12,835 nt of DNA from a virus (Duplodnaviria; Heunggongvirae; Uroviricota; Caudoviricetes), in IMG/VR virus record IMGVR_UViG_2737471853_000001, positions 1 through 12,835 of that record; one strand, written 5' to 3'. The notes beneath the pieces are model-generated. The model searched no databases and was not told the origin of the DNA. It saw only the letters and a list, made by a program, of their open reading frames with translations. Below are positions 1 through 12,835 of this stretch, piece after piece. The stretch's first letter is position 1; each line of letters opens with the position of its first letter. Made by a program: the position numbers and the translations under genes.

Positions 1-290
1 ATATATGCGGTTAACGTGAAGCTCTGGTTATAGGGATTAACCCCCGCGACATATACATTTCCTCCGTTCCGGTAAGATATTACTGGCGTGGGCTGGGCGG
101 TATTTGTGGTCCTGATAAATACCATCACAGGGTAGTCAGCATTTAATGCAATATTCTGAGCAACCTGCTGCGAACTGCCATTAGCAGAGGAGTTGAAAGT
201 GTACTTGCCGTAAAGACAAAAAGGCGTTGACTGGGGCGTTACAAATGGGTTCCCGTTGTCCATTAATATCATCGCGCCAAATTCGGCCAT
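1..290 (-). CDS. Hypothetical protein, 5' part only (N-terminal 96 aa; runs off the window start). Second small ORF downstream of J.
   Basis: ATG at 288-290 overlaps the TAA stop of the preceding ORF (TAATG on minus strand). My hand translation of the minus strand gives MAEFGAMILMDNGNPFVTPQSTPFCLYGKYTF... with no in-frame stop down to position 1. Not in the ORF track because it is truncated. No family recognised. Confidence 0.45.
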   Translation of the reverse strand, partial: MAEFGAMILMDNGNPFVTPQSTPFCLYGKYTFNSSANGSSQQVAQNIALNADYPVMVFIRTTNTAQPTPVISYRNGGNVYVAGVNPYNQSFTLTAY

Positions 291-592
291 TATGCTTTCT
301 CCATGAAAACGACCACTTCACACTTTGAGGCCGGATAATTACCCAGACCTACAGAAGATGCAGCGCTTACGGTTATTGTGCTCCCTGACGCGACAATGCG
401 CCGCCCTACGCTGTTACCTCCTTCATCAAGTGAAAGAACAAAACCAACTTTCATTCCTGAGGGCACCGTAAAAGACCAGCTGCCGGAGGTTTGCCCGGCA
501 GCCAGCTGTATTCGCCCAACGACGGAAACGGGTTTGATGCCATAGTTGTTGGGTTTTCCTGAAGCATCCCAGGTCTGTATTCCATAAGCCAT
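290..592 (-). CDS. Hypothetical 100-aa protein immediately downstream of J (possible tail-tip accessory protein)
   Basis: ORF track 290..592. Its ATG lies 1 nt after the J stop (TGA-A-ATG). No signal peptide or transmembrane segment evident; G/S/V-rich, looks beta-rich. Function unknown. Confidence 0.55.
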   Translation of the reverse strand: MAYGIQTWDASGKPNNYGIKPVSVVGRIQLAAGQTSGSWSFTVPSGMKVGFVLSLDEGGNSVGRRIVASGSTITVSAASSVGLGNYPASKCEVVVFMEKA

Positions 593-593
593 T

Positions 594-3500
594 TCAGAAT
601 ACTCCCGTTAATCGGCCAACCTGCACCCTAAGAACATTACTGCCATCTTTGACGCTGATCGTCTGATTTGTCAGTTTCATGGCTCCCTCACCAGCAGTCG
701 AACCGTAGTTCTCAAACGTCCCCCCTTTATCAAGCTTCCAGCCAGCAGAACCAGCAACATAATTGTTCGACTGGATAAAATTACCAATCTTTGCGTTGCT
801 GATAGTGCCGTCCTGAATGAGGGTGTCACGGATGAACACCTGCCCGTTCTGGATAACAAACGGCAGAGTCACGGTCCCTCCAGCCTGGGTCATAACCGCG
901 AAGCGGTCTGCCAGGAAGAGCACCTGCGACTGCATTCCCGCTGGCGTATTCTGAACACCAATCCCCATTCCTGCCGCGTACTGGTTGCCATTGGAATCAA
1001 CAGCTACCTTGATGCTGTACATCGCATTCAGGTTATTATTGATGTCGGCTGATACCTGGCTGTTCTGGATAATAGCCGCAGACTGACCATTTACTGTGAC
1101 CTTGAGCGAGTTAATTTGCGTAGCTGATACTTGAGTGAAATCAGCAAGCGTCTTAGACAGATCGGTAACATTCGCCGTGTTTCCACCGGCGCTGGAATCC
1201 AGGGTGCGCAGAGACTCAGCGACAGCTTTACTGGCGTCGGCCATCACATTGTCTACTCGATCGATACTGGCTTTGTTATCTCCATACTGGACGCTCAGGA
1301 GGTTGCGCTGGTTAACCTGCGCGAGCGTACTGGTGATCAGCGCGATAGCATTGTTCTGAATACCGCCGCTGGCCTTATCAGTTTGTGCACCCAGCTCTTC
1401 CAGGCGTGATGCCATTGAGGAATCGAGGTCCGTGACAACCTGGCTAAGGTCAGTGATTGATGCTGTATTCTGAGCACCTACAGCAGCTGCTGAATCAGCT
1501 TTGTCAGATGCGGCCTGAGTGGCAGCCGTCAACTGGCTTACAGCAGAAGCGCGCGCTTCAGTTTCCGTTGCTAAAGCCTGGCGAACATCAGTAATTCCGG
1601 CTTCATTCTGCGCAGTTTTTGCCTCAAGGCGAGTAACATCCGTGACGCGCGCTTCCGTCTCAGTGGCGATCACCTCCCGGAGCTGTTCGAATGTCGCAGA
1701 GTTAGCGCCCTGTTGGGCTGTCTGGCGCACGATAACATCGGCAATAGCCAGGGCGTTCCCAATGATTGCTTCTGCTGTCTGCTTATTCGAACCTACTGCT
1801 GCAGCCAGACCATCGGCGTTCTCCTTAATCGCATCAGAAAGTTCGGCCAGTTTCTCGCTACTTTCTACGGCACTCTCAATCAGATCCTTGAATACCTCAG
1901 AATCTTTAATCTCCTCCAGGATCACACTGGAGACATCAGAAACATCTATACTTGCCTGCCCACGAACCCAGCCGGTATAACCTGATTCGTTGCCGCTGCG
2001 GTCCACCAGCTGCGCGCGGTACCAGAAAATCTGCCCAGCCTTAAGGCCCATCTGCTGATATTTGCGCTGCGGGTAAGGCACATCGGCCAGCAGCATCGCA
2101 TCGTCTTCGGTACCGGTCAGACTGTACTGAATTTCCGTCTTCAGCGTGTCGTCGGTATTCGCCGGGAATCCCCAATTCAGCTCGATACCGAATACCACGT
2201 TTTCAGAAGCGATAAAGCCAACCGGCTTCGGTGGATTGCCCACTTTACCCGTCAGCGTTTTCTCTTCTGAGTAGCCCCATCCAGATGAAATTTCTGCGGC
2301 ATTGATTGCGCGCACGCGCACCAGGTAGCGCCCGGCATAAATCCCCGGGACATCGAATGACGTGGTGGAGCTGCGCGGCACGTTAACCCAGTTCCCGTCG
2401 TTGCGGCGCCATTGTGCTTCATAGGCGATAGCGTTCTGCGCCTGGTCCCAGCTCACGCGCATTGTTTCGACGCTGATATTTTGCTGAACCACGGAAAACG
2501 AGCTGATCACGATATTCGCAGGCGGCGACTGGTTACCAGGCGGGATCACGCTCACCGGCCGTTGGTCAATGATGGCTCCGGTATCGATACGGGCATATTT
2601 ATCCGGGTCGTGCCATGCGCCGGTGATTGAGAAAGTGCCATCCCCGTTATCGGAAACGCTGACAACTCGATACTGCTGCGCGTAGAGCTCGTCAGATTCA
2701 ACCACCCAAACAGCTTCGGCCTGTGGCGTCTCACTGTATGCCGTGGTGACTGTGACTGATTCCCCGTTCACGGCATGAATGGTCCTGCTCTGCGACGCTC
2801 CGGAGGGAAGGTTGAGAATAAGGCGATCACCTGGTGCTGCATCAGCTACGCGGTCAAGTTTGATAACGCGACCGTTAACGGCGCTGATGCGGCCGCCCAT
2901 AACCTTTCCGGAAAGCAGCTCGTCTGCCACGGCGATGATGTAGCCAGGCTGCGGAATGTTTCCGTCCAGCCCGACATCAAACGAAACAACGCGATCCTTG
3001 TTATTAGTGAGAATACCCCAGCGCCCCTTTCGGTTCGCCTCTGACTGCCTGGTGCAGCCGATGGCTGTCATTTCCAGCTGATTGAAGCCGTATCGCGCCA
3101 CCAGCGCCTGCTCAAATACCGGTTCCATCGCGTCGGCATAAGCGTTACCCGGGTCTGACCATGAAACCAGCGCTGTGGTGTAGCGGCTTTTCGTGGTGCT
3201 GCTCGAATAGGTGAAGCGACCGCCAACAACGTTAGCGCGCGTATAGCTGTAATCAACATCGCGCGGCATGTCAGCCAGGGCCACAATCTGATCCCCGCCC
3301 CAGTAGGTCATGCCACGGAAGATAGCGGCAAAATCACGCAGGACTGTGTAGGCGTCGTTCCGGTCCTGAATGTACACGTTGCAGGTATAACGTGGTTCTG
3401 TACCGTTGCCCCCTTTGCCGTCTGGTACCATCTGATCACAATACTGAGCAACCTGATAAAGCGTCCATTTATCAATATTCTCAGCGGTCAAACGGTGCCC

Positions 3501-4391
3501 AAGGCCGAACCGGTCAGAAACAACCAGGTCGTAAAAAATCCACGCAGGGTTATCCGTCCATGCCCACTTAAACGCACCGGTCCATGTACCGCTATAAGTG
3601 CGGGTTTCAGGGTCGTAGGTATCTGGAACGCGGATAACGCGGCCGCGCGGTTCGCATGAAATTTGAGGAATAGAGCCGTTGAACTGGCTTGAGTCGAATT
3701 CGACGTAGAGCAGCGCGGTGTTCGGGTAGCGCAGTTTGGCGTCAATCACCTCGGTGAAGCTCTGCAGCATCATCGTGTCGCCGATCTTCGCGCTGTTGGC
3801 GTCAGAGGTAATCTTACGCAGACGTATTGTCCAGGTGCTGCCAGCCTGCGGTAAATCGATACGGTGGCTGCGCTCATAACCTGAGGTCGTTTTACCGGTC
3901 ACGCTGGTATTGAGTACCGTCTGCCATGTGCCGCCGTCCGTCTGTAGGTCAATCGCATAATTGACCGAGTAACCCACCAGATCGCCGTCGTCTTCCTGTT
4001 TGAAAAGCGAGGGCCATTTAAGACGCAGGCGAACTGCTGAAAGCTGCGTATTGGTAAACGTGCGCGTCCAGGCTGTGGCACTTGATACCTCAGTTCCTAC
4101 GCTGATCTCGTTTTCGGTACCGGGAATACCCTGAATATATTTTTGCGCCTGAGTTCCCGCGCGAAACTCCCACGTTACCCCGCTGAAGTTTTGGGAGCCG
4201 TCAGCATTCTCCAGCGCTGTTCCGTCCAGGTAGATATCTTTGCCGGTGAGCTGCCCTGCAAACTCACCTTCCCCAAGCGCAACGAGGATTTTTGCCTTCG
4301 CTACAGATTGCAGATCATCAGGCTGTTCGGTAGGAGTTCGGGAACTTGAGCTGCCGCCCTTGCGGCCTTTTAACACTTTATCTGTAGCCAT
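594..4391 (-). CDS. J: Host specificity protein J (tail tip / central tail fibre), 1265 aa
   Basis: Sits after I as in lambda. N-terminal two-thirds resembles lambda gpJ as I recall it (e.g. the ...ISGVT..FRAG... and ...RITCN.Y... stretches, plus fibronectin-III-like region). The C-terminal ~400 aa is a coiled-coil with TETEAR repeats followed by a distal domain, and differs from lambda J. Confidence 0.93.
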   Translation of the reverse strand: MATDKVLKGRKGGSSSSRTPTEQPDDLQSVAKAKILVALGEGEFAGQLTGKDIYLDGTALENADGSQNFSGVTWEFRAGTQAQKYIQGIPGTENEISVGTEVSSATAWTRTFTNTQLSAVRLRLKWPSLFKQEDDGDLVGYSVNYAIDLQTDGGTWQTVLNTSVTGKTTSGYERSHRIDLPQAGSTWTIRLRKITSDANSAKIGDTMMLQSFTEVIDAKLRYPNTALLYVEFDSSQFNGSIPQISCEPRGRVIRVPDTYDPETRTYSGTWTGAFKWAWTDNPAWIFYDLVVSDRFGLGHRLTAENIDKWTLYQVAQYCDQMVPDGKGGNGTEPRYTCNVYIQDRNDAYTVLRDFAAIFRGMTYWGGDQIVALADMPRDVDYSYTRANVVGGRFTYSSSTTKSRYTTALVSWSDPGNAYADAMEPVFEQALVARYGFNQLEMTAIGCTRQSEANRKGRWGILTNNKDRVVSFDVGLDGNIPQPGYIIAVADELLSGKVMGGRISAVNGRVIKLDRVADAAPGDRLILNLPSGASQSRTIHAVNGESVTVTTAYSETPQAEAVWVVESDELYAQQYRVVSVSDNGDGTFSITGAWHDPDKYARIDTGAIIDQRPVSVIPPGNQSPPANIVISSFSVVQQNISVETMRVSWDQAQNAIAYEAQWRRNDGNWVNVPRSSTTSFDVPGIYAGRYLVRVRAINAAEISSGWGYSEEKTLTGKVGNPPKPVGFIASENVVFGIELNWGFPANTDDTLKTEIQYSLTGTEDDAMLLADVPYPQRKYQQMGLKAGQIFWYRAQLVDRSGNESGYTGWVRGQASIDVSDVSSVILEEIKDSEVFKDLIESAVESSEKLAELSDAIKENADGLAAAVGSNKQTAEAIIGNALAIADVIVRQTAQQGANSATFEQLREVIATETEARVTDVTRLEAKTAQNEAGITDVRQALATETEARASAVSQLTAATQAASDKADSAAAVGAQNTASITDLSQVVTDLDSSMASRLEELGAQTDKASGGIQNNAIALITSTLAQVNQRNLLSVQYGDNKASIDRVDNVMADASKAVAESLRTLDSSAGGNTANVTDLSKTLADFTQVSATQINSLKVTVNGQSAAIIQNSQVSADINNNLNAMYSIKVAVDSNGNQYAAGMGIGVQNTPAGMQSQVLFLADRFAVMTQAGGTVTLPFVIQNGQVFIRDTLIQDGTISNAKIGNFIQSNNYVAGSAGWKLDKGGTFENYGSTAGEGAMKLTNQTISVKDGSNVLRVQVGRLTGVF

Positions 4392-4402
4392 ATTGCGCCC
4401 AT

Positions 4403-4433
4403 AAAAAAGCCACCCGAAGGTGGCCAGAAAAAA
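4403..4433 (-). terminator. Intergenic GC stem-loop with flanking U-tracts between I and J (terminator-like or mRNA-stabilising hairpin)
   Basis: Minus strand reads TTTTTT-ctg-GCCACC-ttcg-GGTGGC-TTTTTT-atgggcgcaat-ATG(J). Stem 4409-4414 / 4419-4424 with UUCG-type loop; U-run follows at 4402-4408. Confidence 0.4.
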
Positions 4434-4443
4434 GGTTAGTTAT

Positions 4444-5049
4444 CTACTGCTGATCTTCGACATAAATTCCGGCAGAAATAATCGCTCCGCCGATTCGACG
4501 CTTACCATAAAGCAGAGGCACTGGGTAGCCTTGCGCTGCAGTGTTGGTTACCCCGCCAAACGCATACGATGCACGGTTATCTGCGCTTTGTTTACTGGCT
4601 ATGCCTGATGGCTGCGGTGAAAGCAGCTGAATAACCCCACCGAGGACCAACGAGGCACCAGTGGCAGCAGCAAACCACGTCAATCCACCAGCAGCGAAAG
4701 CAGCGCCAATACCGCCAGAAACAAAGACTGCAGCAGTTATCAAAACTGCTCCTAATATCGTCTGAAAAAGACCAGCGCGTTTACTACCGATAATTACAGG
4801 CATAATCCTTACTACATCGCCTTCAGAGGGAAAACCCATCTCATCTGCGGCAATATTTCTTTTCCCTTTGAACACCGCGAAAGTTAATCCGCGACGTTTA
4901 CTGCTGATCATGAAACTTTCGAAACCGGGCAATGTTTTACTTAAAGCAATAGCAGCTTCACCAGTTCGCGCTATCAGTCGTTGATGGGTTCTACCGAATG
5001 TCTTTCCTAACACTCCGCCGAGCTGAATTGTTGTCATTACTTCTTTCAT
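4444..5049 (-). CDS. I: Tail assembly protein I
   Basis: 201 aa, located between K and J as in lambda; hydrophobic Gly/Ala-rich C-terminal half typical of gpI. The true start could be the internal Met (MTTIQ...) 12 nt downstream. Confidence 0.85.
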   Translation of the reverse strand: MKEVMTTIQLGGVLGKTFGRTHQRLIARTGEAAIALSKTLPGFESFMISSKRRGLTFAVFKGKRNIAADEMGFPSEGDVVRIMPVIIGSKRAGLFQTILGAVLITAAVFVSGGIGAAFAAGGLTWFAAATGASLVLGGVIQLLSPQPSGIASKQSADNRASYAFGGVTNTAAQGYPVPLLYGKRRIGGAIISAGIYVEDQQ

Positions 5050-5060
5050 ATTCTCACCAT

Positions 5061-5080
5061 AAAAAACCCGCCGAAGCGGG
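5061..5080 (-). terminator. Rho-independent terminator candidate downstream of the lipoprotein gene
   Basis: Minus strand reads CCCGC-ttcg-GCGGG followed by TTTTTT (stem 5067-5071 / 5076-5080, U-run 5061-5066), 12 nt after the lipoprotein stop and 11 nt before the I start codon. Confidence 0.55.
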
Positions 5081-5091
5081 TTAAGTCTTGG

Positions 5092-5433
5092 TTAGATACA
5101 GCGTTCTATTACTTTAATCCGGCTGTTTATTCGATAAGCAAATAGCCCACCTTGATGACGGAATTCAATCTTGGTAATTCCGCCGTCCGATATTAAATCA
5201 ACCATCTCAAGTTGAGATTGTGTAAATACAGTTTTACCACCGTCATAAGGCTGAATAAAAACGCTTCCATATTTTTGGCTTTCTTCTTGCCAGCCAGAGA
5301 GTATGCATTCAGCTACTGCGTCAATTTGTTTCTTCGATTGAAAAGTATTTGACGCTGGTTCCTTCCGGAGATCCTGCATACTCGAACAACCAGCCATGAT
5401 TATCAAAGAAAGTGTCAATAATGTTTTTTTCAT
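5092..5433 (-). CDS. Predicted outer-membrane lipoprotein (113 aa precursor) inserted between K and I; candidate moron
   Basis: The ORF track entry 5092..5601 overlaps the 3' end of K; the plausible start is the internal ATG at 5431-5433 (MKKTLLTLSLIIMAGC-SS...). This gives a signal peptide with lipobox IMAG-C and Ser at +2. AAAGGGG lies 9 nt upstream as a ribosome-binding site. Region is AT-rich relative to neighbours. Followed by a terminator. Confidence 0.7.
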   Translation of the reverse strand: MKKTLLTLSLIIMAGCSSMQDLRKEPASNTFQSKKQIDAVAECILSGWQEESQKYGSVFIQPYDGGKTVFTQSQLEMVDLISDGGITKIEFRHQGGLFAYRINSRIKVIERCI

Positions 5434-5462
5434 ATCCCTATCCCCTTTGGTTTTGCAAAAGG

Positions 5463-6173
5463 TTAGCACAGAGATTTGTAACGTAGAATCTTCATCGTCC
5501 TTTCCTGCCAGTAGCCACCATACGGCACGCGCTGGCTCAGATGTCCGTACAGGTGGTGCAGCAGCATATTTCCCTCCAGCAGAATTCCCGCGTGATTCCA
5601 CTTATCGGCCTGGACCTGCATGATCACCATATCACCGGGTTTCGGTGGTCCGTCGAATTCACGGAATCCGCATTCATACCAGCAATCCTGATAAAAATTG
5701 TCCGGATAGGCGTTTTCCCACCAGGGATAATCCACCCGGTAATCGTGGAGCTCGATACCATGCGTTTGCCGGAAATAGCTCATTACCAGCCCCCAGCAGT
5801 CGAAGTGTCCAAGCACAAACGGACGCTCCAGCAGTGGCAGTTCTCCGCGCGGCTGGATGGTGCGTAAATCCCCCTCCGGCCAGCTCACAATATGCCAGGG
5901 TAAAAGCGTTGCGTCGCATTGCGCTTTATCCAGTTCGCTCGGCTGCGTAGTGGCGTCAGGGTGACTGTGAACGATGGCGATCACCGTACCCCAGTCCTCA
6001 GCAGCTGCATAGTCTTCTGGCGACAGGTGAAAATGTTCTGTCGGCTCGGTAGCGAGGTTACTACATGGAAAATATTTCTCTACCCGGCTCTTTTGCGCCA
6101 CCACGCCGCAACACTCACTAGGATATTCAGCTGCAGCATGCGCCATAATCGCATCGATGGTTTTCTGACGCAT
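5463..6173 (-). CDS. K: Tail assembly protein K (JAMM/MPN metalloprotease-like domain plus NlpC/P60 domain)
   Basis: 236 aa. JAMM motif H-S-H-x7-S-x2-D visible in ...AIVHSHPDATTQPSELD...; NlpC/P60-like Cys/His in ...FDCWGLV... and ...HAGILL.... Position between L and I matches lambda. Confidence 0.9.
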   Translation of the reverse strand: MRQKTIDAIMAHAAAEYPSECCGVVAQKSRVEKYFPCSNLATEPTEHFHLSPEDYAAAEDWGTVIAIVHSHPDATTQPSELDKAQCDATLLPWHIVSWPEGDLRTIQPRGELPLLERPFVLGHFDCWGLVMSYFRQTHGIELHDYRVDYPWWENAYPDNFYQDCWYECGFREFDGPPKPGDMVIMQVQADKWNHAGILLEGNMLLHHLYGHLSQRVPYGGYWQERTMKILRYKSLC

Positions 6174-6174
6174 A

Positions 6175-6930
6175 TCAACTCCTGATCAGCGACGTACCAG
6201 GGAAGCCACCAAACGAGAGTTCGTTATTTTCGCCGAATCGGAGTTTGCAGGCCGTCAGCGTGCCATTGCATTCATCCAGCGACGGATCGCTTACCGGGTT
6301 GTTGTTTTTATCGAAATAGCGGGTGCCGGCATAGTCGCAGCCGTCGCCGGTACGATATTTATTCCGGATGCACCATGTGCACAGAGAATGAAGCTGGCGG
6401 GTAGGTATCATCAGCCCCTGCAGATCCATAGGGCTGGATAGTGTGAACTCAACAACTTCATTGGTTTCACTGCTCTTTGCATCGATGTAGAAAACCTTCA
6501 GCTTCTCCTGGGTCGGATCGGCTGTCGGATTGCCTCCGGTGAAGTTTCTCGCATCGAGATACTTACCAAGGGTGTCATGTATCGTCACCTTCGCCTGCAG
6601 CATATCGTCGTAAGCCAGGCAAAGCGCGGTGATCGAACTGTCGAGGTTAGCAACCGAAAGTTTTGGCTGGGCACTACTTCCCGAGGTTGAAGCTTCGATC
6701 CCCTCAATCTGGCATGGCCACGCTTTATACTCCTCACCCTGCCACCAGATAGATTTTGCTGGCAGTTTATTTTCATCACCGCCAGCAGCGATAATTTCGG
6801 CTTCAGAGTGCGCAAGACTGTAGCTGTGAAATCGCAGCACATCACCTGTACCAAATGCCGTGCCATCCACTTCGAAAAGCCTGACCACATCGCCAGGTTC
6901 GAGCTTCTGAAAATCTGCGTTAAGACTCAT
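6175..6930 (-). CDS. L: Minor tail protein L
   Basis: 251 aa, between M and K. C-terminal Cys cluster (C-x2-C ... C ... C ... C) as in the iron-sulfur-binding region of lambda gpL. Start overlaps the M stop (ATGA). Confidence 0.88.
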   Translation of the reverse strand: MSLNADFQKLEPGDVVRLFEVDGTAFGTGDVLRFHSYSLAHSEAEIIAAGGDENKLPAKSIWWQGEEYKAWPCQIEGIEASTSGSSAQPKLSVANLDSSITALCLAYDDMLQAKVTIHDTLGKYLDARNFTGGNPTADPTQEKLKVFYIDAKSSETNEVVEFTLSSPMDLQGLMIPTRQLHSLCTWCIRNKYRTGDGCDYAGTRYFDKNNNPVSDPSLDECNGTLTACKLRFGENNELSFGGFPGTSLIRS

Positions 6931-7268
6931 GGTTTGTAGGCCTGTTCAAAAGTTGCAGAAAGATTAAATAACCCGGCACCAAGTGGCGTTGGTGTGTAGG
7001 TGTCGCAGCGGTAAAGCCCGAGAGGCTCAAGCGGCGGGCGCCACTGAAACGCCGTCACGCCCGCATGGCGATCGAGAAAGTCTTTAATCGCCCCGATATA
7101 CGTTTCGGTACCGGTAAACTGGAGAGTCCATTTCTGCGAGCGGGGATTAATCCCGTCGCAGGAAACCTGCTGATATCCGTCACCGAACTGCGCGGTGCGC
7201 CGTCGGAATGTCACTTCCTGCTCCGCGTTCGGGCGCGGACACCAGCTGAATGTTTCTATAGCCATCAC
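6927..7268 (-). CDS. M: Minor tail protein M
   Basis: 113 aa directly after the tape measure gene; contains the FGDGY.Q motif shared with lambda gpM. Start overlaps the H stop (ATGA). Confidence 0.88.
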   Translation of the reverse strand: MMAIETFSWCPRPNAEQEVTFRRRTAQFGDGYQQVSCDGINPRSQKWTLQFTGTETYIGAIKDFLDRHAGVTAFQWRPPLEPLGLYRCDTYTPTPLGAGLFNLSATFEQAYKP

Positions 7269-9685
7269 CGCCCTCCTTTTGCCAGATTCCAGACCGCGCC
7301 ACCGGGTGAAAGGTCACGGCCTATCAACTCTCGGTATCGCCGATCAACAAAACTACCTACCTCCCGCCCGAATTGCTCATATCCACCGCTAGCCTGAGTC
7401 TGGGTATTCCCATTGCCATCAATCTGAATACTGACCTGAGGAGCACTACTACCACCCGGTGTTAAGCCTGAGATTCCCATAGCACGCACGCCCAGCGATC
7501 CGTCAGCGGCGCGGGTCAGTGGCATAATAGCCTCCGGCCCAGCCTCCCCCATCAATCCGGCCCCTTTGGCAAAGGCAAACAGTGTTGGAGAGCTGACGAC
7601 AGAGTTACTGTACTGACTGAGATCGGCAGAAGAGTAAACGCCGCCTTTGGCGTTGAATTGCAGGCTCGCCCCGTAGGACTGAATCGCAGTACCGCTGCTG
7701 GCGGAAGACGATGCGGCACCACCGAACAATGAGCCTATCGAGCTGGCTGCATTGGCGATCATCATGTTAACCATCACCTGTTCGATGATTTTCAGAACAC
7801 TGACACCCCAGTCTTTCCAGCTCGCTTTATTGCCGTTGAGCATGTCGACGATATTGCTGCTGATACCGGAAAGCGCGCTTTTCATAGCGTCCGCCGCCAG
7901 CGTCGCATAGTTAGTTGAATCATCTACCCAGTCAGCGAGACCGTCTCTGGCGCCAGTCACCCAGTCAGACTGCAGCGCATCAATTTGACTGTAATAATCC
8001 TCCTGGATGCCCAGCCTCTCAGCTTGCGCATCCTTTAATGCCTGGGTTTCGCGGTCATAAACTGTCTGGCTGATATCTCCTGACTGATACTGCTTTTGCA
8101 GATCGCGCAGCTGATCGAGATAACTGCGCTCTATACTCAGCCTTTCCCTCAGCCTTTCACGCTGCTTGTCACCGAGTCCGGCCCCCTGAATATCCACGCC
8201 CAAATCTGCACGTGCATTCTCGTTCTGCTCCTGCAGATTTGCCACGAACGCCGCTACCTTCGCGTTTTCTTCATTAGCTTTTTTGACGGCATTAAGGCGA
8301 TCAACTTCCTGAGCCAGAGACGCAAGTCGTTTCTTCTGGGTTTCGTTAAGCCCCTGCAACTTGCCGTCAGCTATATCGAACTGCAGTTTTTGCTGCTCGG
8401 TCACCACAGCAGTTTTTTTGCCGGTGGTATCGATCAGCTCAATCTGACGCATGTAACTGCGCTCAGCGCTTTTAAACGCTGAATCCAGTTTCTGACCAGA
8501 GGTATTTTTTTGCGGCTTACCGTTTGTTTCCCCGGCGCCAAGGGTATAGTTTGTTTTGACTGGCTCGGGCAGTTTTATTTCCGGTAGAGTAGATTGGGAG
8601 TTTCTCAAAAAGGCCAGTCGCCTCTGGAGCTCAGCCCTTTCGGCCTCCTTACTGGATACGTCCATACCTATTCTGTTGAAACTCGCCAGTATGCCTTTAT
8701 CATCGAGATCTGCATTCAGGTTCTTGATGCGCCGTTCAATTTCTGGAATGGAGGCATTCAGGCCGACCGAACTCCCACCTTTGTACTGGTCTATCAGCTT
8801 TCCGGCCTCGGCTCCTACCCTTACCAGCCAGGTGGCAAGGTCCACTACCCCACCAACCAGATCAGTCAGACCCTGAATAACAGCCGGGTCTTTAAATACA
8901 TCCCCCATATCTCCAATAGACTTCTGGAGCCCACTCAAATCTACGCTGGCGAGCCCTGCAGCAAGTTCAATTTTGACGCCGTTGACCTGCGTCTCCATAT
9001 CCTCAAACAGGGCGTTGACTCTGACCAGCTTTTCAATATCTGCGTCATCGGGCGCCACACCAAACTTCTTCGCGGCATCCATATACTGACGCAGCTTTTC
9101 ACTGCCATTGTCCAGGAGCGGCAGCATCTTTGACAGGTCATTACCCAGACTCTCCAGGATGGTAGTCTTCTCGGCGTTGGACTTAACTTTCTCCAGTGCG
9201 TCGCTGATAGCCAGGAGTTGCTTGTCGGGAGATTCTCCGGCCAGTTTCTTAGCCGACAAACCCAGAGCGTCCAGCGCACCGACCGCCTCACCAGATTTAT
9301 TAAGAACGGCATCACCGATTTTGTCTCCGACATCTTTAAAGATATCGGCCATCTGATCGCCGGAAACACCTGCTTTTTCTGCAGCATATTGCCAGGCTAA
9401 CAGGGACTGCGTGGACATGTTAAGTGACTTTGCCCAGCGGTCTGATTCGGTAATCTGACGTGAAGTGGTTTTGAGCAGGTTATACCCCGCCACTCCGGCT
9501 CCGATGGCTGCAGCCCCGACTGCTGTTGCGAATCCGGTCATGGCAGCTGCAGCGGCAGCGGCATCCTCCTTTACCTGCTTACGCCATTTTTGTGAAGCTC
9601 GCTCAGCCTGCGAGAGGCCTGAGACAAAACCGCCCACTTTGGCAATCAGGTCGATCGTCAGCGTGCCCAGTGATTTGGAAGCCAT
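7265..9685 (-). CDS. H: Tail tape measure protein (lambda gpH-like), 806 aa
   Basis: Large alpha-helical protein with Ala/Gly-rich hydrophobic segments, immediately downstream of the G/G-T chaperone genes. GGAGAG ribosome-binding site 7 nt upstream of the ATG. Confidence 0.9.
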   Translation of the reverse strand: MASKSLGTLTIDLIAKVGGFVSGLSQAERASQKWRKQVKEDAAAAAAAMTGFATAVGAAAIGAGVAGYNLLKTTSRQITESDRWAKSLNMSTQSLLAWQYAAEKAGVSGDQMADIFKDVGDKIGDAVLNKSGEAVGALDALGLSAKKLAGESPDKQLLAISDALEKVKSNAEKTTILESLGNDLSKMLPLLDNGSEKLRQYMDAAKKFGVAPDDADIEKLVRVNALFEDMETQVNGVKIELAAGLASVDLSGLQKSIGDMGDVFKDPAVIQGLTDLVGGVVDLATWLVRVGAEAGKLIDQYKGGSSVGLNASIPEIERRIKNLNADLDDKGILASFNRIGMDVSSKEAERAELQRRLAFLRNSQSTLPEIKLPEPVKTNYTLGAGETNGKPQKNTSGQKLDSAFKSAERSYMRQIELIDTTGKKTAVVTEQQKLQFDIADGKLQGLNETQKKRLASLAQEVDRLNAVKKANEENAKVAAFVANLQEQNENARADLGVDIQGAGLGDKQRERLRERLSIERSYLDQLRDLQKQYQSGDISQTVYDRETQALKDAQAERLGIQEDYYSQIDALQSDWVTGARDGLADWVDDSTNYATLAADAMKSALSGISSNIVDMLNGNKASWKDWGVSVLKIIEQVMVNMMIANAASSIGSLFGGAASSSASSGTAIQSYGASLQFNAKGGVYSSADLSQYSNSVVSSPTLFAFAKGAGLMGEAGPEAIMPLTRAADGSLGVRAMGISGLTPGGSSAPQVSIQIDGNGNTQTQASGGYEQFGREVGSFVDRRYRELIGRDLSPGGAVWNLAKGGR

Positions 9686-9704
9686 AAACTCTCCGTTGGC
9701 GGCA

Positions 9705-10366
9705 TTATGTCCAGCTGGCTCTGGCTTCCTCTAACGAGATTGGTCCATCAGCAGCTTTGACTTTGGTAAAGTGAAGTGTGAAATCGGTCGGGTTGAATGG
9801 TGGGCGCTTGGGGTCTCTGTTAACGTTGGCTATCATGCTGCTCACCAGCCCGGCACCCCACTCAACCCGCAACATAGGGTTCAGACTCCCGTATCGTTCC
9901 CGGTACTTTGCCCAGAGTTGGGACTCTTTGAATGAGAGGACTTCCCGCGCTTCGGCGATTGTTCTGCCTCCGATTCCGTTGAGGACGAGCTCGCACCAGA
10001 ATTCGTCTTCGGCGCTGAGCTCGAAGTCTTTCCCAGATCGTTAACTTCCTGAATGGCCAGAAGCAGTGCTACCGTCAGGCCGCCATCCAGTGCACCACGT
10101 TCAGGATCTGCCTCACCAGTAATGTCAGCCGGGGTGAAGATGGGTTTACCATGTTCATCGCAGATGGATGCGGCGATACGCCCTGCCACACCATCGACCT
10201 TACCACCAAAAGCCAGCACATCGGACGTTGCTGTGTGATAACCCATCGGGCGAACATACACGGTCGCGGTGATTTTTTTATCGCCTTGCGTCCAGGTGAT
10301 TTCTTTCTCAACCGGGCGACCGGTAAACGCGCCGGACTCCTTGAGTGCATCAAGTGTTAATTTCAT
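9705..10366 (-). CDS. G-T: Tail assembly chaperone G-T fusion produced by programmed -1 ribosomal frameshift (about 220 aa)
   Basis: After a -1 slip on G-GGA-AAG (10028-10034) the new frame is open for 107 codons (GKDFELSAEDEFWCELVLNGIGGRTIAEAREV...EEARASWT) and stops at TAA 9705-9707, 19 nt before the H start. Hand translation from the sequence. Confidence 0.72.
9881..10366 (-). CDS. G: Tail assembly chaperone G (zero-frame product, 161 aa)
   Basis: Sits between major tail protein and tape measure. AGGA ribosome-binding site 8 nt upstream. Contains the slippery heptamer at codons 112-113. The zero frame continues 48 codons past the slip site as a Ser/Thr-rich low-complexity tail. Confidence 0.8.
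   Translation of the reverse strand: MKLTLDALKESGAFTGRPVEKEITWTQGDKKITATVYVRPMGYHTATSDVLAFGGKVDGVAGRIAASICDEHGKPIFTPADITGEADPERGALDGGLTVALLLAIQEVNDLGKTSSSAPKTNSGASSSSTESEAEQSPKRGKSSHSKSPNSGQSTGNDTGV
10028..10034 (-). other. Programmed -1 frameshift slippery heptamer GGGAAAG
   Basis: Plus strand CTTTCCC at 10028-10034 is GGGAAAG on the minus strand, in register xxG-GGA-AAG with G codons 112-113. This is the same heptamer used for the lambda G/G-T shift. Confidence 0.7.
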
Positions 10367-10384
10367 TATTAATCCTGATTAATA

Positions 10385-10400
10385 AGGGCGTTGCCGCCCT
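10385..10400 (-). promoter_or_regulatory. Perfect 6-bp GC stem-loop in the major-tail / G intergenic region
   Basis: Minus strand reads AGGGCG-gcaa-CGCCCT, 4 nt after the major tail stop codon. The following U-tract is weak (TATTAAT), so this is more likely a 3' stabilising hairpin or attenuator than a strong terminator. Confidence 0.35.
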
Positions 10401-10404
10401 GATT

Positions 10405-10905
10405 TTATGGGGTCACGACTTTTGGCACCCATACAGCAGAGCCGGAGCGCTGGATAGATGCAGAAGTAGAAACAACCGTGTTTGCTGCAAAATCAAACGG
10501 GAAGTCGGACACATAGCCTTTGAATACGAACCATGTGCGGCTATCAGGTAGCACCAGGCCATCGACTGCACCGGATGCACCATTTTCAGCCGCAGTTGGC
10601 GATGCGGTTCCGTCTGACCATCCAATCGCGAAGGTCAGGTCCTGATCCTCTTCGTCGTCCGAAATGGACAGGTTGTAGAGCATGATGTGGCTGGTATTTT
10701 TAGGATCAGCGTTAAGCGTCAGTGATGCTGTGCCAGGCGTTCGAAGACCACGCTTATAGCTGCGATCAAAGCGTTCAGAAAGACAGGTGTCTTCAATCTG
10801 GTCAGCCGGATTGCTGCCGGGTGAAAATGCAGTGATACATTCAACTTCGCTCACCTCGCCTTTTACGAGCACAAAGAGCTGCGTACCTTGCGTCAATACA
10901 GACAT
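10405..10905 (-). CDS. Major tail (tube) protein, 166 aa
   Basis: Called by position: directly upstream of the G/G-T chaperone pair and downstream of the DUF3168-like gene. GGAGA ribosome-binding site 6 nt upstream; hairpins flank it on both sides. Family not recognised with certainty from sequence. Confidence 0.7.
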
Positions 10906-10931
10906 TGTTATCTCCGGTCATAAAAAAACCG

Positions 10932-10953
10932 GCTCAAGGCCGGTTGTTGAATA
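10932..10953 (-). terminator. Terminator-like hairpin plus U7 upstream of the major tail gene
   Basis: Minus strand reads CCGGC-cttga-GCCGG-TTTTTTT (stem 10939-10943 / 10949-10953, U-run 10932-10938), lying between the DUF3168 gene stop and the major tail start. Confidence 0.45.
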
Positions 10954-10959
10954 ATACGT

Positions 10960-11325
10960 TTATCGAGTGACTATCCAGTCAACATCGAATGAGTAGCGAT
11001 AGCGCTTTGTTTCGGGGTCTCTTTCCTGTCCGCCCCAGCGCGTGATATGCGCGTGCGGCTCAATGGCATCCCGCAGCGCAGTAGCCACGGCAATCACTTC
11101 ATCCACGGTGTCGGCATATGCATCCACCTGCAGCGTGAAAAAGTCTGCGTCAGGGCGCTGGGCAATGTAGTTCTCTGGAGAACCGGTGATGTTCTGCCAG
11201 ACCACATAGGGATAGACCACGTTGTCGTCCTGAATTCCGAAAGGATAAATTCTTACCGGATTGCTTCCGAGTAAGTCAGTGACTTCAGGACTCGACGCGC
11301 AAACAGAAAAAATAGGGGCAATCAT
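10960..11325 (-). CDS. DUF3168-like tail completion / tail terminator-type protein, 121 aa
   Basis: Matches the DUF3168 pattern as I recall it: ...RIYPFG..., ...PYVVWQNITG..., ...LQVDAYADT..., ...ATALRDA.... Start overlaps the preceding gene's stop (ATGA). Confidence 0.78.
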   Translation of the reverse strand: MIAPIFSVCASSPEVTDLLGSNPVRIYPFGIQDDNVVYPYVVWQNITGSPENYIAQRPDADFFTLQVDAYADTVDEVIAVATALRDAIEPHAHITRWGGQERDPETKRYRYSFDVDWIVTR

Positions 11326-11870
11326 GCAGTGGTTCCTTTCTTCGTGGCCAGCCTGATAGCGCGATCAATAGCCTTTCCCATTTCCGTAGAAAAAACATTA
11401 ATCACGTCATTATCTACGCCGTTCATTGCAGGTCGGAGGATAGGCCGCGCTGATGTGTGCTCAGTACCAAACTCAAGAAAACGCCAGTACCAGGTATCTC
11501 CTCCTGGATTGCCTTTATCTCCTGAGGTTTTGTATGTTTTACCCGCTCTGCCTTTTCTGACGTTTGCCTTTGTATTTGCATACTGCCTAGCACCGCCCAT
11601 TACCCCGACACGGAATGCCAGATCACCTGTCCTGCGGAATTGCTTGCTGCTGAAGCTGGCGACGATATTTTTGTGGATTGCTTCTTTAGTCAGAGGATCA
11701 TCAACTCGTGACGCGTTGCTTCTGGCCCGATCCCTTATAATGTTTGCCGCCTTACGCAATGCAAACCGACCGGCTTTATTACGGGTGACTTCTGATACGG
11801 CCTCCATTTTCCCAAGAAGTGATTCAAGCCCGGTAAGACTTACCTCAACACTATCAGCCATCATTAACAC
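11322..11870 (-). CDS. HK97 gp10-family head-tail joining / tail component protein
   Basis: Motifs LTGLESLLGKMEA, ALRKAANIIRDRAR and WRFLEFGTEHTSARPILRPAM fit the HK97 gp10 family. The track start (MLMMADS...) overlaps the head closure gene by 17 nt; the true start may be the Met at 11859-11861 (MADSVEV...). Confidence 0.75.
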   Translation of the reverse strand: MLMMADSVEVSLTGLESLLGKMEAVSEVTRNKAGRFALRKAANIIRDRARSNASRVDDPLTKEAIHKNIVASFSSKQFRRTGDLAFRVGVMGGARQYANTKANVRKGRAGKTYKTSGDKGNPGGDTWYWRFLEFGTEHTSARPILRPAMNGVDNDVINVFSTEMGKAIDRAIRLATKKGTTA

Positions 11871-12186
11871 CCTCAGAACAGGGAAGCGTCAGGTATTCAC
11901 GTCCGCTTTTTGGATCGGGCAGAACACCATGGATGTTATACACCGCACCACGAAACAAGATGCGATGTTTTCTGGTAACTCCGGCACGGTAGCGAATAAC
12001 AATACGGGTGGTTATTTCACCCTGAGAAGCCTGCGCAGCAATAAATTCACGCGCTGACAATGGTGAAACTTCGGCCCGGACAGTCGCAACATCTCGCCAG
12101 GTATTAATTACGGCTCCCGTTGTCGGGTTCTGCACTTTTACTGGCTCCTGCAGAGTAATCCTGTGGCGCAATTTCCCGGCCTGCAT
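11854..12186 (-). CDS. Head closure protein (head-tail adaptor, Phage_H_T_join / gpFII-like family)
   Basis: 110 aa, MQAGKLRHRITLQ...WRDVATVRAEV.PLSAREF..AQ......RIVIRYR.....HRILF.G.VYNI.GV.PDP... matches the family pattern. Start is 1 nt after the preceding ORF's stop. Confidence 0.88.
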   Translation of the reverse strand: MQAGKLRHRITLQEPVKVQNPTTGAVINTWRDVATVRAEVSPLSAREFIAAQASQGEITTRIVIRYRAGVTRKHRILFRGAVYNIHGVLPDPKSGREYLTLPCSEGVNDG

Positions 12187-12187
12187 G

Positions 12188-12385
12188 TTACCCCCTGGGT
12201 TTACCGCTCAGATAGGTTTGTTGCTCTGCAGTTTCATCTAGTTCACCAGCCAGCGACTGGATAATGACATCGCAAAGCGCCATATTTGATTCAGCCAGAC
12301 GGCTTATCGCTTCCGTCTGCTCCCTCTGCGCTGTGATTTGTTCCCGTATCACTGCTATCAGTTCGTTTACCAGTTGCTCGTTCAT
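12188..12385 (-). CDS. Small hypothetical protein (65 aa, predicted helical) between connector and head closure genes
   Basis: ORF track; its stop is 1 nt before the head closure ATG (TAA-C-ATG) and it fills an otherwise empty gap in a tightly packed operon. No clear Shine-Dalgarno sequence and no recognised family. Confidence 0.4.
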   Translation of the reverse strand: MNEQLVNELIAVIREQITAQREQTEAISRLAESNMALCDVIIQSLAGELDETAEQQTYLSGKPRG

Positions 12386-12448
12386 AAGCTATTTTTGCCC
12401 ACTTTTTTATCCACTCGCTCCGTTGCGCGCATCCTGAACAGGCCATAT

Positions 12449-12775
12449 TTACACCCCGTAAATTCGGTATGGCTGAAGCAGGGCTTCAACTGCAAACGGG
12501 ACCTCTGCAACGGTCTGACCGACGGCCACTGATTCTCTGTTGGCATACCAGTGACCTATCAGCAATAACATGGCCGCTTTAACATCATCATTCAGTAGAA
12601 TCGGGTCCGGGTCGTCTGCGTAGCCAGGGGAGCTTTGGTTTTCATAGAGCGTTCGCCTTGTCCATGTCTGGACGTAACGCGCCGCCGCACCGGTGTATAA
12701 CGTCAGCAGGGCATCGTCTCCGGAAAAATCGGTATCAATGCGGCAGTGCTGTTTCACCACATCAAGGTCGACCAT
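12449..12775 (-). CDS. gp6-like head-tail connector protein
   Basis: 108 aa; ...VKQHCRID.DFSGDDALLTLYTGAAARYV...AMLLLIGHWYANRE...LLQPYR... fits the Phage_connect_1 pattern. Its ATG overlaps the stop of the upstream gene (TAATG). Confidence 0.85.
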   Translation of the reverse strand: MVDLDVVKQHCRIDTDFSGDDALLTLYTGAAARYVQTWTRRTLYENQSSPGYADDPDPILLNDDVKAAMLLLIGHWYANRESVAVGQTVAEVPFAVEALLQPYRIYGV

Positions 12776-12835
12776 TATTTTTTCGCCTTCTTGTCAGCTT
12801 TTACTTCCGGCTGTACCTGCTGCTGTTCCTGCTGC
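12775..12835 (-). CDS. 3' end of an upstream head-region gene (C-terminus ...QQEQQQVQPEVKADKKAKK*)
   Basis: Hand translation of the minus strand gives an open frame entering from beyond the window end and stopping at TAA 12775-12777, overlapping the connector ATG. Identity (capsid, decoration or other) cannot be determined from 19 residues. Confidence 0.35.
   Translation of the reverse strand, partial: QQEQQQVQPEVKADKKAKK

Follow-up and report, generated by a model that had tools for sequence, protein, structure and literature searches.

The stretch of viral DNA analyzed here (Caudoviricetes; positions 1 to 12,835 of IMG/VR record IMGVR_UViG_2737471853_000001), which we refer to in its full length of 12,835 nucleotides (nt) as the window, contains overlapping reading frames for a G-like tail assembly chaperone and for T, the segment presumed to be fused to it by a ribosomal frameshift. 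Our results show that the C-terminal tail acquired by G when ribosomes read through this overlap without shifting is kept without hydrophobic residues by a biased choice of codons in the overlapping T frame, despite the variable length of this tail among related phages. This is the one new point of our study. The frameshift itself represents the annotated gp13/gp14 case of phage HK022, an instance of a textbook mechanism, and is already known, since HK022 gp13 and the joined gp13-gp14 product are annotated in an identical sequence. In our estimation, there is a probability of roughly 80% that the locus, which belongs to an HK022-type siphophage, uses a lambda-type -1 frameshift as found in HK022 and that the tail is a side effect of where the zero-frame stop codon lies, purged of hydrophobic residues in the course of evolution. 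The genes concerned are all located on the minus strand of the window and arranged as follows:

9881..10366, minus strand: open reading frame (ORF) of the G-like tail assembly chaperone (HK022 gp13), 161 amino acids (aa), the unshifted product; established from the list of ORFs, its translation and 100% identity to HK022
10041..10043, minus strand: TAA stop codon of the -1 frame, within GTTAAC, two codons upstream of the heptamer; closes the T frame up to the slip site
10028..10034, minus strand: slippery heptamer G GGA AAG (X XXY YYZ); GGA is G codon 112 and AAG codon 113
9881..10027, minus strand: dual-coding overlap; the zero frame encodes the 48-aa tail of G, rich in Ser, Thr, Gly and Lys, and the -1 frame the best-conserved, N-terminal part of T
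9705..10028, minus strand: T segment in the -1 frame after the slip, 107 codons plus TAA (the HK022 gp14 part of a joined coding sequence, CDS); established by translation

Codon bias in the overlap of G and T

Beyond the slippery heptamer, the zero frame of G continues for 48 codons (TSSSAPKTNSGASSSSTESEAEQSPKRGKSSHSKSPNSGQSTGNDTGV), giving gp13 a C-terminal tail that includes the peptide SPNSGQSTGNDTGV. Within the overlap, the first and second codon positions of the zero frame correspond to the second and third positions of the T frame. A T-frame codon of the type NTC (N, any nucleotide) is thus read as TCN, specifying Ser, in G; NTT is read as Phe or Leu, NTA as Tyr or a stop codon, and NTG as Cys, Trp or a stop codon. 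All 12 of the Phe, Leu, Ile and Val codons that the T frame contains in this region are NTC codons, as compared to 239 of 831 (29%) in the other genes of the window, 4 of 14 in the rest of T and 8 of 28 in the G domain. The analytic probability of this outcome is 1.3e-7, and it lies below 1e-6 when conditioned on an open zero frame. We used 27,793 synonymous recodings in which the zero frame was kept open as the null model for tail composition, and not a single one of them yielded 12 NTC codons out of 12.

The effect on the zero-frame product is considerable. The tail contains one hydrophobic, aromatic or Cys residue, as opposed to the 15.4 +/- 2.7 expected and a minimum of 5 among the 27,793 resamples, and it contains 16 Ser residues instead of the expected 7.3 +/- 2.0. 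Its richness in Ser follows from the fact that no other polar residue can be obtained in the zero frame where T has an NTN codon. In addition, thymine occupies 1 of the 48 T-frame third positions in the overlap, compared to a background of 27%. Since a T-ending codon in the T frame always produces a hydrophobic residue in the zero frame, the avoidance of such codons keeps NTN codons out of the zero frame.

The preliminary description of this locus, which was based on the DNA letters and a list of ORFs, had proposed that the tail was probably disordered, and structural modeling points in the same direction. An AlphaFold2 model based on a 26-sequence alignment depicts G residues 1-114 as folded, with block-mean predicted local distance difference test (pLDDT) scores of 56-91 that are mostly above 70, and places the end of the last G helix (residues 95-116) at the slip site. 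No structure is predicted for tail residues 115-161 (pLDDT 31-36), and the tail is accordingly predicted to be disordered. A Foldseek search of the Protein Data Bank (PDB) with the G model returned no hits at E <= 0.001, leaving us without a structural homolog of G that could be named, and a PDB sequence search with the G-T fusion gave no match at E <= 1.

The bias follows the zero-frame stop of each lineage

The comparison with related phages was based on 138 loci (58 on bacterial contigs sampled at one genome per species, 80 on viral contigs), which together comprise 120 unique sequences. Inside the overlap, NTC codons account for 96% (698/726) of all Phe, Leu, Ile and Val codons in sequences with tails of at least 47 codons, for 94% (177/188) in those with tails of 22-32 codons and for 100% (35/35) in those with tails of 12-18 codons. 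At the homologous T positions just past the zero-frame stop, by contrast, they make up 33-43%, a value equal to the local background. The same switch is evident column by column, with a given T position showing NTC in 94-100% of cases when it lies inside the overlap and in 20-65% of cases when it lies outside. After the set had been split into 36 clusters at 80% amino-acid identity, 28 clusters had codons both before and after the stop; in all 28 of them, the NTC fraction, as read from the cluster table, was higher inside than outside. Hydrophobic residues constitute 2-8% of the tail but 22-30% of the virtual zero-frame continuation past its stop.

This pattern extends to more distant phages. 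In the Vibrio-phage clade, whose slip site is CCCAAAG and whose tails comprise 52-60 codons, the NTC counts inside and outside the overlap are 10/13 and 1/13 in one case and 13/15 and 2/11 in another; in the Synechococcus-phage relatives, with tails of 37-40 codons, they are 9/9 or 10/10 inside and about 4/11 outside. A second, independent class of codons, those that are not of the NTN type but have a T-ending synonym, end in T in 8-18% of cases inside and 22-33% outside. Finally, among 40 sequences of the clade with 48 tail codons and 107 T codons, the third-position diversity of T is 0.24 in the overlap and 0.43 in the T-only codons, compared to 0.44 at the third positions of the G domain.

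Thus, the T frame displays an excess of synonymous constraint that is attributable to the zero frame and limited to the overlap. Because the bias stops at the zero-frame stop of each lineage, and because neutral decay from an all-NTC ancestor would randomize both sides of this stop equally, our data argue for selection on what unshifted ribosomes translate. Considering this codon signature and the fact that unshifted ribosomes must read the tail, we regard it as very probable that the tail is translated and that selection keeps it polar.

These findings also bear on the suggestion, contained in the preliminary description, that the tail may be incidental. If it were entirely neutral, and its richness in Ser simply a consequence of the amino acids encoded by T, its length would be readily explained. 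When the synonymous codons of the HK022 T protein were resampled according to the codon usage of 11 window genes, the zero frame remained open for at least 48 codons in 14% of the resamples (P = 0.14). Its openness over 48 codons alone is therefore unremarkable, just as the earlier description had surmised in calling an open alternative frame of this size not very improbable by chance. The variable length of the tail in other lineages and the variability of its distal part (aa diversity 0.29) fit a neutral origin as well. However, a neutral tail would carry about 15 hydrophobic residues rather than one, a complete set of NTC codons is at odds with it, and neutral decay cannot produce a bias that ends, at homologous positions, with the stop codon of the respective lineage. 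The term 'incidental' therefore fits the length of the tail, not its composition, and we consider a neutral tail quite improbable.

Possible RNA-level signals and candidate frameshift stimulators

Several points weigh against our interpretation. Codons 1-17 of the overlap show extra synonymous constraint (diversity 0.089), and the bias in this segment, which coincides with a clade-specific hairpin, could partly have arisen at the RNA level. Moreover, relatives have tails of anywhere between 0 and 60 codons, with just 3 codons in many lineages. As for the sample, the viral-contig and protein-search sequences were ranked by their similarity to the full 161-aa query, so that long tails are over-represented among them, and the pooled counts overstate the independence of sequences that are phylogenetically related. 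Since relatedness inflates the pooled counts, we rely on the cluster-level comparison.

Two elements in the vicinity of the heptamer are candidates for signals acting at the level of the mRNA:

10045..10050, minus strand: AGGAAG, similar to a Shine-Dalgarno (SD) sequence, a possible upstream stimulator of the dnaX type, exactly 10 nt upstream of the heptamer
9986..10023, minus strand: predicted 38-nt hairpin, specific to the HK022 clade, beginning 4 nt after the heptamer (minimum free energy -22 to -24 kcal/mol, z -2.25)

An SD-like tetranucleotide is found 10-16 nt upstream of the heptamer in 108 of the 120 unique relatives, as compared to 8% of control windows. It overlies conserved Gln-Glu-Val codons, and the coincidence of AGGAAG with these codons (CAG GAA/GAG GTT) makes the coding signal and the SD signal inseparable. 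The hairpin may be a downstream stimulator or, alternatively, a by-product of GAGCTC palindromes, two of which constitute its outer stem and which encode Glu-Leu under the NTC rule. Across 25 diverse relatives, the proportion of cells that pair is 65%, compared to 63.8% in shuffled sequences, with no covariation, and RNAalifold returned no consensus structure downstream of the heptamer in the same set. With pairing at the level of shuffles and an empty RNAalifold result, a conserved downstream RNA structure was rejected at the family level. The dnaX -1 frameshift is said to be stimulated by an upstream SD-like element together with a downstream hairpin, as reportedly described by Larsen et al. 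in 1994 and by Tsuchihashi and Brown in 1992. The window resembles this system in that it has AGGAAG 10 nt upstream and a stable predicted hairpin a few nucleotides downstream of its slip site, but it differs from it in that the SD-like element is inseparable from Gln-Glu-Val coding and the hairpin is not conserved beyond the HK022 clade. We regard the proposed roles of the two elements as leads rather than findings.

It is conceivable that the synonymous bias as such reflects an RNA element past the heptamer, i.e. a frameshift-stimulating structure or sequence, rather than selection on the protein tail of G. Apart from the stable HK022 hairpin and the minimum of synonymous diversity in overlap codons 1-17, this notion could draw on the foldability of the 50 nt downstream of the heptamer, which reaches a mean z of -3.2 in the clade with tails of at least 47 codons, as opposed to -0.9 elsewhere. 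However, the hairpin spans only about codons 2-14, whereas the NTC rule spans all 48; neither a conserved structure nor covariation was found across the 25 relatives; and the GAGCTC palindromes of its stem are precisely what Glu-Leu dipeptides produce under the NTC rule. An RNA element would also keep a fixed distance from the slip site. The bias does not, ending instead with the zero-frame stop at 12, 18, 28, 32, 48, 55 or 60 codons. We thus think it improbable that the bias originates from RNA signals.

Tail length and a possible function of the tail

Among the unique relatives, the zero-frame tail has a length of 3, 4, 6, 12-15, 18, 22-23, 28-32, 47-48 or 55 codons, and the inclusion of distant clades expands this range to 0 to 60 codons. 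Named phages with short tails are D3 (6 codons), KpF5 (3), Halomonas QHHSV-1 (3) and PAJU2 (0). Given this wide range and the many lineages with only 3 codons, whatever positive function the tail may have is dispensable, and most of the tail itself appears to be so. A weak signal of selection on length comes from the species-level sample, in which the median tail comprises 28 codons, compared to the 14 codons given by the neutral expectation for each locus (Wilcoxon p 0.002, with phylogeny ignored), a result that is suggestive only. For this question, we disregarded how often each length occurs among the viral contigs and the protein-search sequences, because both samples are biased towards long tails.

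Alternatively, the tail could be a functional module of G, such as a solubilizing 'entropic bristle', a spacer or a region binding weakly to the tape measure protein or the T domain, whose presence is itself maintained by positive selection. Long polar tails indeed occur in divergent clades, including the HK022 group (48 codons), Salinicola (55), the Vibrio phages (52-60) and the Synechococcus phages (37-40), and in HK022 the tail persists even though, by our own reading of the codons, single T-synonymous mutations at about five sites would truncate it. The species-level excess in length and the high conservation of the first 17 tail residues could be taken as further signs of a function. On the other hand, D3, KpF5, Halomonas QHHSV-1 and PAJU2 manage with almost no tail, lambda has only five codons in this place, and stepwise re-extension followed by 'polishing' could give rise to long tails as well. 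The conservation of the first 17 residues is not independent evidence, since these residues overlap with the most conserved segment of T and with the hairpin. Positive selection for the presence of the tail is thus a tentative idea that we consider rather unlikely. With similar reserve, one may speculate that the tail is a maintained disordered extension of the abundant G protein, which serves to keep it soluble and non-sticky or adjusts its stability and, in this way, the G:G-T ratio, and that the NTC rule represents a general signature.

Evidence for the frameshift and its conservation

The preliminary description had interpreted the locus as a lambda-type G/G-T frameshift with a G-GGA-AAG heptamer at G codons 112-113, a -1 frame that stays open for 107 codons and ends 19 nt before the tape measure start, and a zero frame that continues for 48 codons, making positions 9881-10027 dual-coding. 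All of its coordinates and counts are correct. The heptamer lies at 10034..10028, the TAA stop of T at 9707..9705, 19 nt from the tape measure ATG at 9685, and translation of the overlap agrees with the two proposed frames. Its interpretation as a programmed frameshift also matches the annotation of the identical HK022 sequence.

Residues 6-109 of G correspond to Pfam family PF16459 (Phage_TAC_13; E 2.7e-34, score 117.9, cut-off 28.8 bits). The profile search suggested earlier for the -1 frame product identified it as a member of PF06223 (Phage_tail_T; E 1.7e-8, score 35.2, cut-off 25.9). After the slip, this frame reads DFELSAEDEFWCELVLNGIGG..., beginning with DFELSAEDEFW, and the predicted junction of the G-T fusion is ..EVNDLGK/DFELSAEDEFWCELVLNGIGGR. 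Since the -1 frame contains a TAA stop two codons before the heptamer, a slip at an earlier position would end translation at once. The first ATG, GTG or TTG of the T frame is codon 52, at position 9875, and is preceded by 51 codons without a start. T codons 1-49 constitute the best-conserved part of the segment, with an aa diversity of 0.107, compared to 0.201 for the remaining codons.

Conservation of the heptamer and of both frames, which the earlier description had named as a check, is evident among the relatives. GGGAAAG is kept in 135 of the 138 related loci, the others having GGGAAAA (two Stenotrophomonas loci, L035 and L045) or the non-canonical GGGGAAG (L021, from Candidatus Pantoea communis). 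All but one of the 120 unique relatives have a -1 frame that stays open over 98-110 codons; the single outlier has 123. The heptamer at the homologous position is likewise GGGAAAG in D3, KpF5, EcoS-716R3, Halomonas QHHSV-1 and Synechococcus phage Yong-L1-251. At the same place, Vibrio phage Her and the Vibrio-phage clade (loci L147, L152 and L153) have CCCAAAG, and PAJU2 (L148) has AAAAAAC. To judge from these sequences, the slip site has been exchanged several times, with the G/T architecture retained.

In the window, GGGAAAG occurs three times, compared to 1.8 copies expected, so that the heptamer alone is not significant. An in-frame copy at 11379-11373 (minus strand), in the gp10-like gene, was rejected as a slip site and represents a chance occurrence, since its -1 frame closes after two codons (GY, then a stop). 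Frame arithmetic from the coordinates places the copy within the tape measure gene (8148-8142) outside the X XXY YYZ register, and this copy was rejected as well. What goes beyond chance is the combination of a -1 frame that opens two codons before the heptamer, a match to Phage_tail_T and the retention of the heptamer in 135 of 138 relatives.

Many of the GenBank entries for related phages imply that T is produced by independent initiation, with D3 (orf18), KpF5, PAJU2 (gp17) and Vibrio phage Her all annotated as having a separate small downstream ORF. However, the first start codon of the T frame in the window would exclude 51 codons that make up the most conserved part of T, the frame is closed by a TAA two codons before the conserved heptamer, and the HK022 record annotates a join. 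Independent initiation thus appears very improbable. As to the state of these records, T is listed as a separate small ORF with an internal start or as a hypothetical protein in D3 (L141) and in L142, L143 and L145-L148; because its annotation begins at an internal codon or takes this form, the conserved N-terminal half of T is unannotated there.

Proposed mechanism and comparison with known systems

Programmed -1 frameshifting between G and G-T of phage lambda was reportedly described by Levin, Hendrix and Casjens in 1993 and by Xu, Hendrix and Duda in 2004, 2013 and 2014. In a mechanism modeled on this precedent, most ribosomes would read gp13 through, producing a 161-aa protein that consists of a folded 113-aa Phage_TAC_13 domain and a 48-aa disordered tail of mainly Ser, Thr, Gly and Lys. 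A few per cent of them would slip at the heptamer, with tRNA-Gly and tRNA-Lys re-pairing from GGA AAG to GGG AAA as in lambda, and continue for 107 codons in the -1 frame to yield the G-T fusion. If lambda is a valid guide, G and the G part of G-T would cover the tape measure protein, the fusion would use its T domain to bring the major tail protein to the tape measure covered in this way, and neither G nor G-T would remain in the virion. The long tail would be a side effect of the point at which the zero frame first meets a stop codon. Because it sits on the abundant product, it would be subject to purifying selection against hydrophobic, aromatic and Cys residues, exerted through the synonymous sites of T. 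Hydrophobic residues in an abundant unstructured tail could lead to aggregation, to recognition by proteases and Lon-type degradation, or to spurious binding. A T-synonymous mutation that creates an early zero-frame stop would then release the constraint downstream of it, and the bias would decay. What the data show is the anatomy of the sequence, its identity to HK022, the conservation across the family, the codon bias with its dependence on the stop, and the predicted disorder; the steps modeled on lambda, the efficiency of frameshifting and the cause of the selection are inferred.

The window shares with lambda the heptamer G GGA AAG, the position of the genes between the major tail and tape measure genes, and the membership of T in Pfam family Phage_tail_T. 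Unlike its counterpart in the window, a Phage_TAC_13 protein, lambda G belongs to a different Pfam family and is absent from the tblastn matches. As the preliminary description had noted, lambda G stops a few codons past the slip site (five codons, CSTVS), whereas the zero frame of the window runs on for 48, and the T segment comprises 144 codons in lambda, compared to 107 in the window. In lambda, gpG and gpGT are produced at a ratio of about 30:1, this ratio is important, and gpGT binds the major tail protein through its T domain (PMC5009743). We also considered HK97 as an independent test family, but its G protein is of a different family and the scan did not find a canonical heptamer, so that no test could be obtained from it.

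Studies by Rancurel et al. from 2009 and by Willis and Masel from 2018 are said to describe overlapping (overprinted) genes of viruses with one intrinsically disordered product. The overlap analyzed here resembles such genes in that 147 nt are read in two frames, with T structured and conserved and the tail biased towards, and predicted to show, disorder. It differs from them in that the disordered product is a C-terminal extension reached without frameshifting rather than a separate de novo gene, and in that the length of the tail varies freely, the detected constraint being on composition only. A disordered, compositionally biased second product has been described as a general pattern of viral overlapping genes (review PMC8227390).

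Genomic context

Positions 9600-10450 of the window are 100% identical to phages HK022, HK140, mEpX2 and mEp235. Taken in full, the window is an HK022-like mosaic that matches mEpX2, HK140 and mEp235 at 97-98% identity over approximately 90% of its length, but it is not HK022 itself, to which its identity reaches 100% in the G/T region only. In this region, there is no difference from HK022 gp13/gp14. The HK022 record (GenBank AF069308 / NC_002166) lists exactly the same 161-aa ORF as gp13. Its gp14 is entered as a CDS joined from two pieces under the name 'tail assembly chaperone', and an accompanying note calls it 'presumed to be expressed as the downstream part of a translational frameshift product'; this database annotation is silent on the codon bias of the tail. 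The overlapping ORFs of G and T are located between the genes for the major tail tube protein and the tape measure protein, as expected for G/GT chaperones:

10405..10905, minus strand: major tail tube gene with a lambda-like product (Pfam Phage_TTP_11, E 8e-66; HK022 gp12), directly upstream of G
7265..9685, minus strand: tape measure gene of the lambda type (Pfam Tape_meas_lam_C; HK022 gp16), beginning 19 nt past the stop codon of T

The major tail gene and G are separated by 38 nt, within which lies a GC-rich palindromic hairpin (AGGGCG-TTGC-CGCCCT, 10385-10400) that was flagged as terminator-like on the plus strand by the scan. A 'putative terminator' is annotated at the equivalent position in HK97, and the hairpin may attenuate transcription past the abundantly expressed tail tube gene. 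Some relatives have an extra small gene between T and the tape measure gene (L142, 2209-2586; L143, 2207-2578; L145, 2245-2550). In HK97 (L149), this gap contains gp15 (1704-1892), annotated as a 'moron product'. HK022 and the window have no extra gene at this site, with a gap of 19 nt.

Implications for dual coding and frameshift annotation

Full-text searches did not find a published account of the codon bias in this overlap or specific statements on the HK022 or HK97 tail and overlap, although key primary papers were outside their scope and an earlier mention is possible. With its zero-frame stop at many different positions, this one family provides a clean natural experiment on dual coding, in which the synonymous choice of T is almost 100% NTC up to the zero-frame stop and drops to background exactly at this point. 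It shows that the seemingly 'wasted' continuation of an abundant unshifted product is visible to selection, which acts against hydrophobic residues. The NTC signature, which can be read from the sequence alone, could help to annotate G/T frameshifts, the majority of which are recorded as two separate genes in the relatives. Should the NTC rule prove to be general, the out-of-frame continuations past programmed frameshift sites would be policed through the synonymous sites of the shifted frame, and the same signature could be used in computational searches for translated overlaps and for the positions of frameshift sites.

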